Shown here: positions 3,062 through 14,341 of the stretch, one piece after another
Position numbering within the stretch: position 1 is the stretch's first letter
How the letters are laid out: each line of letters starts with the position of its first letter
IMG/VR virus record: IMGVR_UViG_3300047160_035978
Coordinates: 713-64,712 of that record
Source: a virus
Taxonomy: Duplodnaviria > Caudoviricetes
Length of the DNA: 64,000 bases
Direction: 5' to 3' (one strand)
Made by a program: the position numbers and the translations under genes
Notes under the pieces: model-generated
The model's database searches: none
Seen by the model: the letters and a program-made list of their open reading frames with translations, nothing else
What the model was told of the DNA's origin: nothing

Positions 3062-3661
3062 CTACTCCTGGCCGGCGCCGCCGGCGATGGGGGAAGGGAT
3101 GAGGGCCATGGCGGCTGCCTGGACGCGCTCGACACGTGCGCCCCAGCCGCCGCCGTAGTGCGGCCACTTCGGCAGGGATTGCAGGAAGGCGAGCCGGCGG
3201 CGCTCGAAGTCGGGGATCACCGTCGACAGGTCGGCGACCTGGGCAGAGTTGATGGTGATGGGGCCGAGCGCATCGTCGACCGCGACGCCCAGGGCGCCCT
3301 GCAACCATGCCACGGTGCGGTGGATGTGGCCGGTGCGCGATCCCAGGCCACTCATCACCTCGGAGTCCAGCGCGACGTAGGCCAGCGGCAACGGCAGTTC
3401 GTCGCCGTGCAGCGGCACCCAGTACCTGGCATCGTAGATCGCCAGCGCCTCTTCCTGCGTCAGGGCGCGCATGTCGGCGGCAGTGACCGGCGTCCTGCGC
3501 CAGGACGCCAGCACCGGTGCGGAGATGCCGCGGCAAGTGCCAATCAGAGCGCCAGCGCCGGCTGTTCCGCCGGACCAGTTGCCGTCATCCTCGGGATCGC
3601 ACTGATATAGGCCCTCGCTGTTGAGGACGCCGGCGGCGCAGGTGAGAAAGTTGGGGCTCAT
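3062..3661 (-). CDS. Endolysin, glycoside hydrolase family 108 with C-terminal PG-binding domain
   Basis: EGLY..DPEDDGNWSGG, GIS, YW, GWxxRV pattern typical of GH108. Confidence 0.85.
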   Translation of the reverse strand: MSPNFLTCAAGVLNSEGLYQCDPEDDGNWSGGTAGAGALIGTCRGISAPVLASWRRTPVTAADMRALTQEEALAIYDARYWVPLHGDELPLPLAYVALDSEVMSGLGSRTGHIHRTVAWLQGALGVAVDDALGPITINSAQVADLSTVIPDFERRRLAFLQSLPKWPHYGGGWGARVERVQAAAMALIPSPIAGGAGQE

Positions 3662-6600
3662 CGGCCGGCCACCCACACGACATAGGCTTGGTTAGCGGGC
3701 GTACCCGCCGTGATCGCACAAACCTTGAAGGTGACAGTGCCAGGAGCGCTGACGAAGCCTCGTGTCACGAAGTTGTCGCCGGGGTCGTTGGCGGCCGCGC
3801 CCGAGACGGCAACCGCCATGGACGTGGTGGCGCCCGGCACCGATACCGTGCCGCTGGTGCACTGCCCGGCGGTCAGCGCCGATCCTCCGATGCTGCTGGT
3901 GGTCACTGGCGGAAGCACCATCGACTTGCCTGGGCCAAACTGTGTCGGCACCGTGCCGAAGGCGGTCCATACCTCGCCAGTTCCGGCCGTCCAGCTCCGC
4001 GCGCCGGCCGAAGGCAGCAACCACTGCACCACAGCGGAACCGCCCAGGGTGGTTGCGATCTCGGCGCGCCCGATGGGGCCGGTGGAGTTCAGTGCCGTGC
4101 CTTGGTATCCGGATCCGGCTTCCACCACCTGGGTGGCCGAATCGAAGATCGTCAACGAGCCGAGGATCGTCGTGCCCCCGAGCTGGGTCCAGGTGCCAGC
4201 GGAGTCGTCCGAATTGACCGGCGCCGTCCACAGCGTGACGGCACCAGTCGACGCGGTGAGCTGGGCGCGAACCCATAGGTCCGAGGTCAGCGGCGATGGC
4301 AGAAGTGACGCGCCCGAGCTGCCGGACACCTCGGTGGTGCCGTTCGTCGATGTGGCGAACTGCAAGGCGCCGGAGCCGTTGACGAAGAAGCGGTAGCAAA
4401 GCGCGCTGCCGCCGGACTTGCCGATCAGGTTTGCCTGCCCGGTCGGTCGGGTGATATAGCCCGCCCGGAGCAGGGCGCGCAGCTCGATGTTCCCGGTGAT
4501 GCGGTTCGCGCTGGCGGATGGAGTGCTGAAGTAGTTGCCAGCGGTGCCGGGGAAATTGGCGCCGATGACGGTGTTCAGGTACGTCCCGAGGCCAGCCACC
4601 TTGGCCGGGTTCACGCCGGCCGAGTTGTTGACCATGTAGTCCTGCAGGAACCCGGTGACCGGCACGATCGGCTGCGGCGGCGACAGGCTGCCGCTGAGCG
4701 TGCGGCCGCGCTGGACGATGATCTTCTGGATGTAGGTCGCGGTGCTCGAGCCGAGCTCGTCGCCATAGAGGAACAGGTCGGCGAACTTCACGCCCGGGGG
4801 GAAGTAGAGCGTGACCGAGTGCCAGAACCAGTTGCCTTGTCCATCGCGCTTGCCGTTGTTGTAGGCGATGGACGGCGCGGTGGAATTGACCTTGACCGCG
4901 CCGTTGTTGGCATCGATGTAATGCAGACCGAGCGCGCAGTTCTCGGTGGGGTCCGTGCCCACGTCGTAGCGGCATAGGATCTGCGCGGTGACCCATTGGC
5001 CGGCTACCGAGTTGGGGCCGCTGACCGCCAGCGGAATGTCCAGCGTGTTATTGGAAGAGGTCGCGACCAGCTTCAGCGCGGTGACGCCGGGGAAGTCGGT
5101 TGTGTCCTTGCTGTACGTGATGTTGGTTGCGGTCAGGCCGGGGATCGGCAGCGTGCCGTCCGCGTTCCAGTCCAGCAGCAGGCCGTCCGCCACCAGCTGC
5201 TCCTGCGCTGCGGTCTGGAATAGCGACTTCGGCACCGACGGCGGAGCCATGCGCCCAAAGGACTTCGGCTGAAACAGCCTGTTGACCAGGCCGGCCCACA
5301 CTCCGTAGCCGGTGGTGTTGGGGTGCAGATTGTTGCTCATCCACTGGCTTTGCCAGCTCGGGTTCGCGTTGAACACCGACCACACGTCGACGTAGCCATA
5401 GCCACGCTGCGCCGCGATCTGAGAGACGATGCGGGTCTTGATCGGTTCGTCCGCCTGCAGCGAGGTGCTGTCGAAGCGGGGGTTCTGGCCCATCATGATG
5501 ACCGGGGCCTGATGGACCGCGGTCAGCTGCTCCACCGAGCGCAGCACGTCGGTGAAGAAGTTGTTCTGCCCGTTGGATCCGATGTTGGTCTGGATCTCGT
5601 TGTGGCTGTGGTTGAAGAACCACAGGTCCGGGCGGATAACGCCCAGGGAGGGATCGCGATACTGGCCGAAGCCGTACAAGGAGCGGGAGCCAGAGATGGC
5701 TACGCTCCAGAAGTGGATGACCGGATCCGCGCCTAGTTGCACCGTGCACTGGCTGCCACCGCATGCCGTCGGCCCCAGCGTCTGTGTCGGGTAGATCGCG
5801 TTGCCCTCCTCGTTGAGGAGGGTGAAGCTGGTGCCGGCGGTGACCACACCGACGAAGGCATGCGGCGGGATACCCAGGCCCAGGACGTGCTTGCCGGCGT
5901 CGCCCGAGGCGATGCTGCTGTCGGTGATGACGTTGCTGGTGGTGGCGCCCGAGACATTGTGCGTCGACAGGCCGGACGGGCCGGTCTGCAGGATCGTCGG
6001 CGCGTACCAGGTGTACGGTGCAGCGGTGGCGGCCGGAGCGCTTGTGGTGGGGTCCAGCCACTGCGAGTAAGCGACCGTGTAGGCCGGCCACTGCGGCCCC
6101 AGCAGCACCGCGAACTGCCGCAGGTAGGTGAGCGGCTGGGTATTGTCGGTGAGATATAGCTGGGTGTCGCCCGTGGAATCGGAGAGTTGGCCGAAGGTCA
6201 CGTCCTGGCCGCGCTGCAATTTCAGCAGCACCGCCTGGGTCACGGCCTCGTTCTGGAGATCGAGGTCGCCCAGGGCGGCTTGCGTGGTCGAGCCGGGGAC
6301 GGTGGAGTCGTTGGCGACCTGCGACGTGGCCGGCTGAGCCGTGGTAATAACGCCAGAGCCGTTTATGCCAGTCACGTATTGGTTGGCGACCGGCGCCGCA
6401 CTCTTGACGCCACCCAGGGTCGAGCCAGTCGGCGCCGGAAGCCGCGCCGCCGGCAGCATGCCGGTGCCCAGATCAGAGGCGGAACCACTCGTGGCGACCG
6501 GGGCTAGTCCGGACACGTCGCCGCTGGTGATGCTTAGCACGCTCTTGGCCTGGCTGGCCGTACAAGCGGTCGGCGGCGCAGTGCCGCCGGTGGAATTGCA

Positions 6601-10828: not shown

Positions 10829-11496
10829 GGACCTGCGACCTGACCTGAATTGCCGGAGCCCGGCTGCACGTTGTTGTGGTAGTGCGTCGTGTCGATGTGC
10901 TTGCCGTTCTGCTTCACAGTGGCCGTGCCAAAGTCAGTGTTGCCGCTGACGTCGATATGGACGCCATTGAGGTTGATACCGCCGGGAGCAACGATGTTCA
11001 GGACGCCTGCCTGCGTAAGCTCCAGGTAGGCGCTGCCGTCGACCTTACGCAGCTGTGCACTTCCAGTGCTGATGCCGCCGGGCACACGGGGCTTCGACCA
11101 TAGACAAGGAATTGCCACCGCATCGGATAGGTCGTGCATCCGCAGCTCGGCTTGCACCTGGACTTTGCCGTTTTGCGCCCAGGTGTCGATGCAGCGGCTG
11201 CAGAACTGCAGCAGCACTTCATCGCCCTGTGCGAGCGGGAAGGTGGTGACGAAGCCGCCACCGCCAATCAGCTGAACCGGCACATCCACTATTAGGGGAA
11301 GAGTCACATTGTTGTCGATGCTTCCGTCAGCGCTCTGCTTCCAGCCAGCAATCGCTGGCAACACACTGCAGGTATTCGTCGCTGGATCGTAGGACTGGAC
11401 AATGCCAGGCAGGCTGGTCCAGATCGTGGACTGGCGATCATCCAGCGCCACCCGGATGGCGTCTTGGTGGTCGCCGATTCGTTCCCGCTGGTCCAT
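10825..11496 (-). CDS. Baseplate spike (Gp138 N-terminal domain family)
   Basis: IWTSLPGIVQSYD, GDEVLLQFCSRCID, RMHDLSDAVAIP, C-terminal THYH; ATG 11496 with GGAG. Confidence 0.85.
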   Translation of the reverse strand: MDQRERIGDHQDAIRVALDDRQSTIWTSLPGIVQSYDPATNTCSVLPAIAGWKQSADGSIDNNVTLPLIVDVPVQLIGGGGFVTTFPLAQGDEVLLQFCSRCIDTWAQNGKVQVQAELRMHDLSDAVAIPCLWSKPRVPGGISTGSAQLRKVDGSAYLELTQAGVLNIVAPGGINLNGVHIDVSGNTDFGTATVKQNGKHIDTTHYHNNVQPGSGNSGQVAGP

Positions 11497-11509
11497 GTCT
11501 GCTCCAATG

Positions 11510-11536
11510 AAAAAGGCCCACTGTTTCCAGTGAGCC
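11510..11536 (-). terminator. Intrinsic terminator closing the RAMP/pentamer-array operon
   Basis: Minus strand GGCTCACTG-GAAA-CAGTGGGCC-TTTTT (9-bp stem, GNRA loop, U-tract). Confidence 0.8.
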
Positions 11537-11548
11537 ATCCTGCTTCGC

Positions 11549-11714
11549 TGCCTTTACAGGCCCCGCCTTGCGATGCGTTGCCACATCGTGCGTTGCCTGC
11601 CGCGTCGTGCTGCGCCATGCGGGGGCGGGCCGAATCTAGCCACACCTAGCCTAGCCTGCGGCGCCATGCGTGAACGCGCCCCGCCTCGCCTGGTCATGCC
11701 TTGCCTGCCGTGCC
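11549..11714 (-). ncRNA. GGY-NN pentamer array (putative guide-RNA array) in three segments
   Basis: 29 pentamers on minus strand: 16 exact GGY, 12 with one mismatch, Y at position 3 in 28/29; last two bases variable; segments separated by (G/C)GCA tetramers; lies between a stop codon and a terminator. Confidence 0.75.
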
Positions 11715-11752
11715 AATCCCTCTTCAACAATCGCTTCCCTGCATCGGTGCTG

Positions 11753-12202
11753 CTATGCTGCCAACTTCAACTTCTGTTGCCGTTCCAGCTTTTCGATCTC
11801 GGTGAAAATCCGCTTCAGTTCCTTGAGGCGGGAATACTTCTCCTGCAGCGACTTGAGGTCAAGCAGGGCATCTGCCAGCAGCTGGCGGTACAGCTCTTCG
11901 TTGCTCACGACCGAAGCCAGCGAGCGGTAACCGCCGCCGCCTTGCCGGTCATTGCGCAGCGAAACGTAAGCCCGAACCGGCTGAGATGGCGCGGCCGGCT
12001 CCACGATCACGTAGGTGCGGATCAGTTGCCGGGCCTGCTCCAGCCGGTAGGCGGAGGCGGCCTTGCTGTCATTCCATTCGAAACAGGCATGCAGCGGGCT
12101 GTTCCGATTGCGGGCGGCCTGAACCACACGTTCCGGCTTGAGGATGCCGCTGCGCGAAGTGAGGCCGTCCAGTGCGGCGCGAATGTCTTCCTGGCGGCTC
12201 AT
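11753..12202 (-). CDS. Conserved-looking partner protein of the RAMP gene (149 aa, function unknown)
   Basis: ATG 12202 overlaps upstream stop (ATGA); motif PLHACFEWNDSKAASAYRLEQARQLI. Confidence 0.8.
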   Translation of the reverse strand: MSRQEDIRAALDGLTSRSGILKPERVVQAARNRNSPLHACFEWNDSKAASAYRLEQARQLIRTYVIVEPAAPSQPVRAYVSLRNDRQGGGGYRSLASVVSNEELYRQLLADALLDLKSLQEKYSRLKELKRIFTEIEKLERQQKLKLAA

Positions 12203-12831
12203 GACGGTTCGGCCTCCAGCTGGAACAGGCCCCAACCCTGGCCGGCACTGTTCTTGGAATCGGGCCGGCCTTCGCCGATGCCGACCTGGGCGCCGACGCG
12301 GGCCAACAGGTTCGCCACGTCCTGTAGCGTGAACATATCGGCGTCGAAGCGGATGCGGACATCGGCGCCCCACTGCTCCCACATCGCCCGGACCCTCAGG
12401 TCGGCCACGCCGGTGACGAGGCGCACCATGCTCTCGTGCTGCCGCGGCTCGCCGTCGATGCGCACCAGCGGCTCGCCGCTCTCGCGGTCGAAGCCGTCAG
12501 GCTCGACGAAGATACCGAGGCGCCCCAAGGTCATCTTGAAGTTGACCAGCCGGCAGGCGCTAATCATCGCGTTGCGGAAGCAGGAGGCTGGCATGCCGGC
12601 CCACCCTTCGCGGCTGCGATGGATCGACTGCTCGAACAGCAGGCTGAAGTCCTTGGCCTCGCGCTTGCGCTTGCTACGCGCGGTGCTGCCAGCGGCCTGG
12701 GCCTCGCGGATCTGGTTCTTGGCCTTCTCCGAGAACTTGCAGGCCACGTAGGGCGCCACGCCGCGGATACGGAAGTTGGCGACCTGCATGTTCGGCGCCG
12801 GGATGCTGACGGTCTTGCCCGCGGCGCTCAT
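12199..12831 (-). CDS. Stand-alone RAMP/Cas7-like protein (210 aa)
   Basis: RAMP-like order: FRIRGVAPY, GMPASCFRNAMISA, LRVRAMWEQWGADVRIRF, LQDVANLLARVG, Gly-rich loop VGIGEGRP...GQGWGLF; GGAG RBS; ATGA overlaps at both ends. Confidence 0.7.
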   Translation of the reverse strand: MSAAGKTVSIPAPNMQVANFRIRGVAPYVACKFSEKAKNQIREAQAAGSTARSKRKREAKDFSLLFEQSIHRSREGWAGMPASCFRNAMISACRLVNFKMTLGRLGIFVEPDGFDRESGEPLVRIDGEPRQHESMVRLVTGVADLRVRAMWEQWGADVRIRFDADMFTLQDVANLLARVGAQVGIGEGRPDSKNSAGQGWGLFQLEAEPS

Positions 12832-13154
12832 TGCAGTCTCCGCAGGCCGGGCCATTGGTATCTGATCTTCGCCCTCGCGAATGGATCAGCGCCCGAATCG
12901 ATGAATTCACGGAACTCGTCAGCTGCAGGATCACCTTCTTCGAAGGCCCACCCGCCACGGATGAGATACGCCTCATCAAGGCCTAGCGCCCAGGCCATGA
13001 TCAGCGTGCCTTCTGCCATTTTTAGCGTAGGTAGTTCGCGGCTGAGGGCGTATTCGACCCCATCGAACTTCCCAACAACCTGAAAATATTGAACTTCGTT
13101 GGGTGACAGCGCCAAGCTGTCTACCACAACGGCACGGCTTGTGCTAGATTGCAT
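12828..13154 (-). CDS. Hypothetical protein (108 aa) in RAMP operon
   Basis: GGAGGT RBS; stop overlaps RAMP start. Confidence 0.7.
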   Translation of the reverse strand: MQSSTSRAVVVDSLALSPNEVQYFQVVGKFDGVEYALSRELPTLKMAEGTLIMAWALGLDEAYLIRGGWAFEEGDPAADEFREFIDSGADPFARAKIRYQWPGLRRLQ

Positions 13155-13211
13155 CTCGTTGTTACCTCCAAAGGGTTCAACACCTGCCCCTCGAACGCCA
13201 CCGGCCAAGGT

Positions 13212-13415
13212 TTAAGCGTTCGGGGGGTTTTTCGTTTTTGCTGCCTGTTCATCCTTCTGCACCTGCTCCAACAGGCACACGATCTCGGAATTTCCGCTGC
13301 GGCGATTACGGGTTGCGCGCTCGCGCACCCAATCCCGCAGCGAAACAGGCAGGCGCACCATAAGCCCGACCTGCTGTGCCGCTTCCACTTTCACCTCCTG
13401 TTTCGGCTTCGCCAT
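13212..13415 (-). CDS. Arc-family ribbon-helix-helix repressor
   Basis: LMVRLPVSLRDWVRERATRNRRSGNSEIVCLL. Confidence 0.85.
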   Translation of the reverse strand: MAKPKQEVKVEAAQQVGLMVRLPVSLRDWVRERATRNRRSGNSEIVCLLEQVQKDEQAAKTKNPPNA

Positions 13416-13434
13416 GAGGTCCCATCCTGTCAAA

Positions 13435-13466
13435 ACACTATCGTAGTGTCAACACTATTGTAGTGG
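13435..13466. promoter_or_regulatory. Tandem inverted-repeat operator between divergent Arc-family genes
   Basis: ACACTA-TCG-TAGTGT (13435-13449) and ACACTA-TTG-TAGTGG (13452-13466). Confidence 0.7.
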
Positions 13467-13514
13467 CGACACTGGATCGGTGGCATATCTTGGTGAAACT
13501 GCTATGCTTTTTTT

Positions 13515-13826
13515 ATGGAATCCCAAGACGACTACGTCCGGTCACAGCTCCGTGTCCCCCGCGAGCTACACGAGAAGCTCACTGAGGCGGCCCGGATTGC
13601 CAGACGCTCTCTCAATGCAGAGGTCAATGCGCGACTCGTTGAGTCATTTGAGCGTCGCGATGCCCAGAATCTCGAAGACATCGATGCGCGACTCGACCGA
13701 AACTTTGCGAAATTGATTGAGGCGGTCAAAGGACTATCGCCCGAGGCGGCGGCGGCGATAACTAAGGCGTTGGAGCCAAATCCAGCCTCAAAGCGTCGTC
13801 GCCAATCAACGTCTCGAGGAGGGTGA
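13515..13826 (+). CDS. Arc/Mnt-family repressor
   Basis: SQLRVPRELHEKLTEAARIARRSLNAEVNARLVESF; TGcTATGCT extended -10 just upstream suggests leaderless mRNA. Confidence 0.85.
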   Translation: MESQDDYVRSQLRVPRELHEKLTEAARIARRSLNAEVNARLVESFERRDAQNLEDIDARLDRNFAKLIEAVKGLSPEAAAAITKALEPNPASKRRRQSTSRGG

Positions 13827-13827
13827 C

Positions 13828-14139
13828 GTGGCGCTAATCGCTTGTCATGAGTGCGGCCACCAAGTATCGAACCTGGCTTCAAATTGTCCTAATTGTGGCG
13901 CGCCTACCGGCACTGCATTGCCTACTCCAAAGTCCACAAAAAGCAGGGGTTTGGCTGCTTTTCTAGCTTTTTTCCTAGGAGGCCTTGGAATCCATAAATT
14001 CTATTTAAACCGACCTGGCCAAGCTGTTATTTATTTGCTTTTTTGCTGGACGTTTATTCCTACGGTAGTCGCTTTTTTTGAAGCTATTTTCTATTGCTTT
14101 TTAAGCAACGAAGAATTTAAGCAAAAATATCAATATTAG
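13828..14139 (+). CDS. Zinc-ribbon + TM2 (NINE) membrane protein; candidate superinfection exclusion
   Basis: CHEC..CPNC zinc ribbon; KSRGLAAFLAFFLGGLGIHKFYL; AT-rich relative to flanks. Confidence 0.8.
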   Translation: MALIACHECGHQVSNLASNCPNCGAPTGTALPTPKSTKSRGLAAFLAFFLGGLGIHKFYLNRPGQAVIYLLFCWTFIPTVVAFFEAIFYCFLSNEEFKQKYQY

Positions 14140-14157
14140 AAGCAATCTTGCCAATCA

Positions 14158-14337
14158 TCACCAGCGCCCCCGGCCGCGCGGCATTAACCCGCCACGCAGA
14201 TTGATCATGTCCTCCACCGCGCGCTGCCTGGCTTCCCGCTGAGCGTACCGCTGCGCCTCCGCGTTGTGGGCTGCCCGGATCTGGTCCATGGGGGAAACCT
14301 GCCGCGGCTGTGGGCGAATGCACTTCACGATGATCAT
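14158..14337 (-). CDS. Small hypothetical protein (59 aa, not in ORF track)
   Basis: Manual translation MIIVKCIRPQPRQVSPMDQIRAAHNAEAQRY...; GGAGG RBS. Confidence 0.45.
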   Translation of the reverse strand: MIIVKCIRPQPRQVSPMDQIRAAHNAEAQRYAQREARQRAVEDMINLRGGLMPRGRGRW

Positions 14338-14341
14338 GGGT

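Follow-up and report, generated by a model that had tools for sequence, protein, structure and literature searches.

A probable VIPR locus with a staggered array of pentamer guides in the baseplate module of a contractile-tailed phage

A stretch of 64 kb (referred to as the window) from a virus record of 64,712 bp (IMG/VR record IMGVR_UViG_3300047160_035978; Caudoviricetes) contains a compact cassette, which consists of a small gene, a partner gene and a tract of five-nucleotide repeats. We propose that this cassette is a VIPR locus, i.e. that it combines the gene of the RAMP protein Vipr, a vap-like partner gene and an array of guides made up of GGY-NN pentamers in a phage genome; the probability of this reading is, by our estimate, about 0.88. 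VIPR (Viral Interference Programmable Repeat) was described in 2026 (bioRxiv 10.64898/2026.04.26.720920). The locus therefore adds a member to a published family and not a new kind of system, and it leaves the picture drawn by the papers of 2026 unchanged. It is, however, a clean and compact example from an uncharacterised clade, whose guides are staggered, delimited by GGCAG and devoid of a tail.

The VIPR systems represent a newly described mode of RNA recognition of DNA by means of a gapped dinucleotide code, and they have been proposed as the ancestor of the RAMPs of CRISPR systems. In the original description, each system pairs a minimal RAMP, termed Vipr, with vrRNAs of 9–16 YNNGG repeats and, as a rule, with a single accessory gene (vap); most of the systems are found in phages and prophages (10.64898/2026.04.26.720920). 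Seven types are distinguished there, and the layouts include staggered arrays, in which neighbouring vrRNAs overlap by 1 nucleotide (10.64898/2026.04.26.720920, Fig. S18). In the structures of type II systems, one protomer occupies each repeat and the GGY is held by a thumb and a G-loop; the two variable bases (NN) pair with DNA, and every third base of the target is skipped (10.64898/2026.04.26.720927). In a separate paper, the VIPR system of Escherichia phage SUSP1 has been reported to silence the recombinase gene of a satellite.

Results and Discussion

The first gene of the cassette encodes a minimal RAMP

A preliminary description of the window, made from the letters alone, had claimed that an open reading frame (ORF) of 210 residues at 12199–12831 encodes a RAMP-like protein with the C-terminal motif VGIGEGRP...GQGWGLF. 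This ORF is present on the minus strand, and the motif is contained in its translation. The protein belongs to PHROG 4652, a family of unknown function. Searches of Pfam, NCBIfam and PADLOC gave no match for the three cassette proteins, that is Vipr, its partner and the product of the ORF upstream of vipr.

A model of Vipr was computed with AlphaFold2 on the basis of 33 sequences and reached a predicted local distance difference test (pLDDT) value of 80.4. It consists of an RRM core with a helical insertion after strand 1 and a long beta-hairpin (residues 130–150); a glycine-rich loop (residues 184–200), which was modelled with low confidence, precedes the last strand. The order of the elements is thus beta1, helices, beta-hairpin, beta, helix, G-loop, beta. 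The significant matches that Foldseek found for this model are RAMPs of the Csm3/Cas7 type, the best one being Csm3 (E 4.8e-5). Structure prediction followed by Foldseek had been named in the preliminary description as a check, and its result speaks for a RAMP.

The relationship to a characterised Vipr was deduced from sequence comparisons. With the single sequence as query, the best match of phmmer in the PDB was the SUSP1 Vipr (36pp_D), whose residues 1–181 were aligned with residues 15–191 at an E-value of 0.002. A profile of 45 Vipr sequences retrieved 36pp only, with an E-value of 1.9e-6. Among the residues with which SUSP1 Vipr contacts the GGY of its RNA, the arginine of the thumb (R138) corresponds to R148, and R179 and D177 of the G-loop correspond to R189 and E187, respectively; the family shows little or no variation at these three positions. 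The family is large: 5660 proteins were found by a word-indexed search at E ≤ 0.001, and 2327 cluster representatives by an exhaustive search. The novelty implied by the preliminary description was therefore overstated, as the locus is one of thousands of homologues in a published family. Its comparison of the architecture with VIPR was justified; VIPR is real and published, and the homology to SUSP1 Vipr, the arrays, the partner and the phage context all agree with it.

Vipr is translationally coupled to a vap-like partner

The partner of 149 residues, which had been said to be ATGA-coupled to the RAMP gene, was found as claimed: the TGA stop codon of vipr overlaps the ATG of the partner gene at 12199–12202. 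The protein is a member of PHROG 15946, and a protein atlas search returned only viral hypothetical proteins. A relative of the partner is encoded in 67 of 73 homologue loci and adjoins vipr in 66 of them, on the downstream side in 64 cases and on the upstream side in 2. The AlphaFold2 model has a pLDDT of 94.6. For the N-terminal domain, Foldseek listed winged-helix domains of the forkhead, MarR and RepE kinds with E-values of about 0.2; these matches are weak and thematically consistent. A wide search with VIA-align was dominated by the C-terminal helical hairpin and is uninformative on the N-terminal domain.

The pentamer tract is unique in the window and consists of staggered segments

The stop codon of the partner gene is located at 11753–11755. 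The pentamer tract starts 38 nucleotides further on, at 11714, and extends to about 11548; downstream of it, at 11536–11515, lies an intrinsic terminator with 9 pairs, a GAAA loop and a T-run. A tract of 166 nucleotides at this distance and a GAAA-loop terminator had both been claimed. Vipr, partner, leader, tract and terminator are all encoded on the minus strand.

For the detection of such tracts we used a phase-tracking scan of both strands, which allows 5-nucleotide steps, penalises 4-nucleotide steps and reports chains that score at least 6. The tract is the sole GGYNN chain in the whole 64 kb, and its score of 12.75 compares to 1.85 ± 0.60 (maximum 4.75) in 1000 shuffles that preserve dinucleotide composition. 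The five-nucleotide periodicity of GGY plus NN that had been claimed is thus real, but it is not kept in one register, and not every unit carries a perfect GGY (see below). The GGY triplets are spread over four registers, each of which is shifted by one base relative to the preceding one, and three 4-nucleotide steps are located within the tract (11709/11705, 11660/11656 and 11601/11597). These steps divide the 34 units into a header and three segments (2+10+12+10). The last unit of each segment reads GGCAG or CGCAG, and its terminal G is at the same time the G with which the following segment begins. Among the 34 units, positions 1, 2 and 3 are G, G and Y in 79%, 79% and 97% of the cases, and positions 4 and 5 are mixed. 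The imperfect units mostly read CGC, GAY or GTT.

For the array RNA, no signal of folding was obtained (z -0.78), in keeping with a guide that is coated by protein, and a search of Rfam with the array returned nothing credible. Tandem Repeats Finder did not call a CRISPR-like array in the window; the pentamer tract was not called either. Matches to cas genes were absent from the three cassette proteins (Pfam, PHROGs, NCBIfam, PADLOC) and from ten other ORFs (PHROGs), although not every ORF of the window was scanned. The earlier statement that neither CRISPR repeats nor cas1/2, cas3 or cas5/6 are visible in the window holds for the repeats and for the ORFs that were scanned.

Most homologous loci carry arrays of the same kind on the vipr strand

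It had also been suggested that homologues be collected and inspected for arrays with conserved GGY and divergent NN. Of 71 genome loci with a gene for a homologue, 59 contain such arrays according to the phase-tracking scan. The arrays number 78 in total, and all 78 are on the strand of vipr and 0 on the other one. In the 4083 units of the 59 loci, positions 1–3 are occupied by G (93%), G (92%) and Y (92%). The corresponding entropies are 0.47, 0.50 and 0.97 bits, compared to 1.84 and 1.99 bits at positions 4 and 5, where all 16 dinucleotides occur. The punctuation of the arrays is likewise shared with the homologues: 83% of the 4-nucleotide steps come after an xGCAG unit, and internal segments mostly comprise 9–11 units, with a mode of 10.

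The closest relatives are two metagenomic contigs (L072 and L073) with a syntenic tail module, whose Vipr is 89% identical to that of the window at the protein level. Compared to L072, the header is unchanged (100% identity), and leader and terminator are each 90% identical. The three guides, however, are only 65%, 49% and 60% identical; in guide 1, the NN pairs of 7 of the 10 units differ, and segment 2 comprises 10 units in L072 versus 12 in the window. The scaffold was therefore held constant and the NN positions were replaced. The fraction of perfect GGY units in the L072 array (0.63) is similar to that of the window. Due to the common scaffold and the retargeted NN positions, the two loci constitute a natural pair for testing the evolution of guides.

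The genes of the two loci have diverged to different degrees. The nucleotide identities are 85% for vipr, 66% for vap and 59% for the spike gene that follows the cassette, and it looks as if the vipr-array unit has been shared more recently than its surroundings. At the protein level, the comparison of 11753–12831 with positions 6001–7076 of L072 gave 89% identity for Vipr versus 53% for Vap. This uneven divergence within the cassette suggests a modular exchange or a fast evolution of vap.

Relation to known systems

The locus fits the staggered VIPR layout. As in the staggered-array systems, a minimal phage-borne vipr and vap locus is combined with GGY/NN pentamers, the locus contains no nuclease, and the partner is of a DNA-binding type; the overlap of neighbouring guides by 1 nucleotide appears here as the 4-nucleotide step after xGCAG. 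What sets this copy apart is that imperfect GGY units are unusually frequent and that it is located in a baseplate module near Arc-like regulators.

The type II systems of Escherichia phage SUSP1 and of a Pseudomonas fulva prophage (PDB 36pp) share with the locus a homologous Vipr of the same fold and, by alignment, the thumb arginine as well as the acid and the arginine of the G-loop. They also resemble it in their guides of 9–16 units and in the phage-borne pair of vipr and vap. In contrast to type II, the G-loop is longer here and an invariant tryptophan follows further on. Moreover, type II guides are separate units of about 100 nucleotides, whereas the guides of the window are contiguous and staggered. 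Because the guides abut with an overlap of 1 nucleotide and have neither a tail nor a fold signal, we did not file the locus under type II.

The backbone RAMPs of class 1 CRISPR systems (Csm3, Cmr4, Cas7 and the domains of Cas7-11) differ in several respects. Their step is 6 nucleotides and not 5, and the second RRM is missing in Vipr. Furthermore, the cassette is devoid of CRISPR repeats and spacers, of cas1 and cas2, of large and small subunits, and of a nuclease partner. Taken together, the locus agrees with the features of VIPR that were examined, save the 3' tail of type II, a target, and H17 and W178 among the GGY-contacting residues of SUSP1 Vipr.

A plausible mode of action

The following scheme is modelled on the literature on type II. 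It corresponds to the gapped guide that the preliminary description had put forward, in which each pentamer is bound by one protomer, GGY is held, NN is presented and the output is silencing rather than cleavage; for the type II system of SUSP1, the papers demonstrate this mechanism. A single leftward transcript would probably extend from upstream of the Arc-like regulator gene to the terminator at 11515–11536 and would encode Vipr, the winged-helix-like Vap and the tail-less staggered array; the arrangement of the operon and the presence of the terminator speak for its transcription. By homology to type II, Vipr protomers may coat the RNA in register, one per pentamer, with thumb and G-loop sequestering G-G-Y and the two variable bases being displayed. 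The slip at xGCAG|G would end one filament and begin the next, and the array would thereby be divided into three guides (10, 12 and 10 units). The double-stranded DNA bound by a filament would correspond to its NN pairs, with a single base being skipped from one pair to the next, so that 29–35 bp would be read. Both the rule of skipping one nucleotide and the silencing output are taken over from the type II literature. As the locus contains no nuclease, the output would be a transcriptional repression, directed at a competing phage, prophage or satellite and presumably assisted by Vap.

One might go further and assume that the boundaries of the guides are set by the register slip alone, with the last G of xGCAG being shared and no structured tail or ribozyme being involved, and that Vipr tolerates CGC, GAY and GTT units. 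The array would then represent a self-punctuating, relaxed pentamer code. We regard this extension as rather doubtful. In the accessible text of the VIPR paper, relaxed units are not described, and the staggered layout is drawn there (10.64898/2026.04.26.720920).

Arguments against the assignment and alternative explanations

A number of findings weigh against the assignment to VIPR. With a sequence identity of about 20%, Vipr is only remotely related to the type II proteins that have been characterised. The tryptophan W178 of SUSP1 Vipr aligns with a glycine (G188), and its H17 aligns with F33 in a weak stretch that is not confidently alignable. The classification of the partner as a winged-helix protein is based on weak scores. 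The guides lack the invariant 3' tail or pseudoknot of type II, and the small-RNA sequencing data in the VIPR paper are from the ribozyme-interspersed and the single-guide layouts, not from the staggered one (10.64898/2026.04.26.720920).

The searches for a target also belong on this side. In the phage's own genome, NN-coded patterns with 0–3 skipped bases gave only the trivial self-match at a skip of 3; at a skip of 1, nothing exceeded controls with shuffled order. Viral and metagenome contigs were scanned for exact patterns with a skip of 1 only. For guides 1, 2 and 3, the viral contigs contained 0, 0 and 2 matches, respectively. The two matches of guide 3 (L074, 3644–3669; L075, 3083–3108) cover 9 of 10 NN pairs, and both are in frame, the skipped base coinciding with the wobble position. 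The genes that contain them are unrelated, and the GC contents of the contigs are 45% and 55%; one of the two matches is located at the 5' end of a gene for a P-loop (GxxGxGKT) NTPase of 226 residues. With 18 specified positions, which are A-rich and purine-first, a rough estimate places these two matches at about the level of chance. For guide 2, the metagenome contigs contained no exact match. When as many as 3 mismatches were allowed, guide 2 gave one match, with 3 mismatches, among 401 genomes from the order to which the genome of locus L048 (labelled Azohydromonas aeria) belongs, which is again about chance. In a comparison of 318 guides from all homologue loci with approximately 0.5 Mb of DNA, which amounts to about 1.0 million positions on both strands, a skip of 1 gave no more matches than skips of 0 and 2 or than reversed controls, but this search space is too small to be informative.

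A further contrary finding is the composition of the array: a perfect GGY is present in only 20 of the 34 units (59%), which corresponds to the 6th percentile of the 78 family arrays. Together with the missing target, this would be compatible with a decaying or inactive VIPR relic, in which the genes are intact, the array has drifted, and functional guides no longer exist. Such a decay is improbable for several reasons. Neither of the two ORFs is disrupted, their translational coupling is preserved, and leader, junctions and terminator are 90–100% conserved in L072, whose similar GGY fraction suggests that the sub-clade tolerates such units. In addition, the Y at position 3 is maintained in 97% of the units, and most of the degenerate ones still agree with GGY at two positions. 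Finally, the VIPR paper characterises internal degeneracy of vrRNAs as frequent (10.64898/2026.04.26.720920).

The location of the cassette beside two Arc-like regulators and inside a late tail module, and again the lack of an external target, might point to a working ribonucleoprotein of the VIPR family with a different output, for example the regulation of the phage's own lysis-lysogeny decision or tail genes, or RNA binding. There is very little to be said for this possibility. The search of the phage's own genome at a skip of 1 gave nothing beyond the controls, and in the published mapping of type II, III and V guides, the targets were other phages, satellites and viral sequences and never the own contig. 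The hypervariability of NN between nearly identical cassettes is moreover easier to reconcile with an arms race than with self-regulation. The view that no RNA-guided system exists at all, the tract being GC-rich filler or a regulatory leader of the spike gene and the protein a virion component or another protein with an RRM fold, can draw on the position within a structural gene cluster and on the failure of Tandem Repeats Finder to call the tract. It is close to refuted: 0 of 1000 shuffles reached the score of the tract, strict same-strand arrays accompany homologues across many phyla and phages, and the sole PDB sequence match is a Vipr. Moreover, the related Burkholderia phage Magia does not possess the cassette, which is hence not a required structural part. 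A VIPR locus is therefore the interpretation that we favour.

Genomic context of the cassette

The coordinates of all features are compiled in Table 1. The phage is contractile-tailed with a genome of about 65 kb, which encodes terminase, portal, sheath, tape-measure, baseplate-hub and wedge proteins. Its tail module is nearest to those of Burkholderia phages (65–71% DNA identity). The cassette represents a moron in this module and is located in the interval from the baseplate-hub gene to the baseplate-spike gene. The gap between hub and spike amounts to about 2.85 kb (11497–14341) and harbours two divergent Arc-like genes, a gene at 13828–14139, the ORF of up to 126 residues, vipr, vap, the array and the terminator; in Magia, this gap contains one small gene only. 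The hub-spike junction thus looks like an insertion site for morons.

Table 1. Features of the cassette and its upstream region in window coordinates.
Feature	Position	Strand	Basis
Promoter-like site, candidate promoter of the operon	13457..13486	-	Consensus scan, 9/12 matches, 18-nt spacer; pattern match only
Gene of Arc-like ribbon-helix-helix regulator, first in the leftward unit	13212..13433	-	PHROG Arc-like families, E 1e-8 to 6e-11
ORF of ≤126 residues upstream of vipr, outside the conserved system	12828..13208	-	ATGA coupling
vipr, minimal RAMP of 210 residues (RRM core, helical insertion, thumb hairpin 130-150, G-loop 184-200)	12199..12831	-	AlphaFold2, Foldseek, profile search, PHROG 4652
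vap-like partner gene, 149 residues (winged-helix-like N-terminal domain, C-terminal helical hairpin)	11753..12202	-	AlphaFold2, Foldseek, PHROG 15946
Leader of 38 nt between vap stop and array	11715..11752	-	Comparison with L072
Header, 2 units, closing with the first GGCAG junction	11705..11714	-	100% identical in L072; recurs in relatives L008, L062 and L024
Guide segment 1, 10 pentamers, the last being CGCAG; final G common to segment 2	11656..11705	-	Chain scan
Guide segment 2, 12 pentamers, the last being GGCAG	11597..11656	-	Chain scan
Guide segment 3, 10 pentamers, the last being GGCAG	11548..11597	-	Read directly; chain scan spans the first 8 units
Intrinsic terminator, 9-bp stem (11536-11515), GAAA loop, T-run	11510..11536	-	Terminator scan

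The gene that follows the terminator encodes the baseplate spike (PF18352). Its start is likely at 11496 rather than at an upstream ATG that lies within the terminator. At the other end of the cassette, a tandem repeat of 17 nucleotides (2.4 copies, 86% matches) is located at 13434–13473 between the two divergent Arc-like genes and beside the promoter-like site. This region is probably an operator that controls the cassette.

A second ATGA (12828–12831) couples vipr to the upstream ORF of up to 126 residues. The latter has no match in Pfam, PHROG, NCBIfam or PADLOC, and tblastn detected relatives in 0 of the 73 homologue loci. In L072, unrelated small ORFs take its place. The ORF is a variable passenger gene and not part of the conserved system.

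Related loci in mycobacteriophages and a cyanophage

Members of the same clade occur in cultured Cheoctovirus mycobacteriophages and in Cyanophage Cy-LDV1, which offers tractable hosts. In the Cheoctovirus group, homologues (H2–H28) include gp45 of Mycobacterium phage Brocalys (NC_031262.1), which is 34% identical to Vipr and encoded beside the genes of an immunity repressor, an antirepressor and an excisionase. An array of 41 units (2118–2350), which is punctuated by GGCAG, is located just upstream of gp45. As the annotated start of gp45 (2339) falls inside this array, it has probably been called too far upstream. In Cyanophage Cy-LDV1 (BK059895.1), g34 encodes a homologue with 57% identity; two staggered arrays (3138–3323 and 3921–4077) follow g34 on either side of g33, and all of these genes are annotated as hypothetical.

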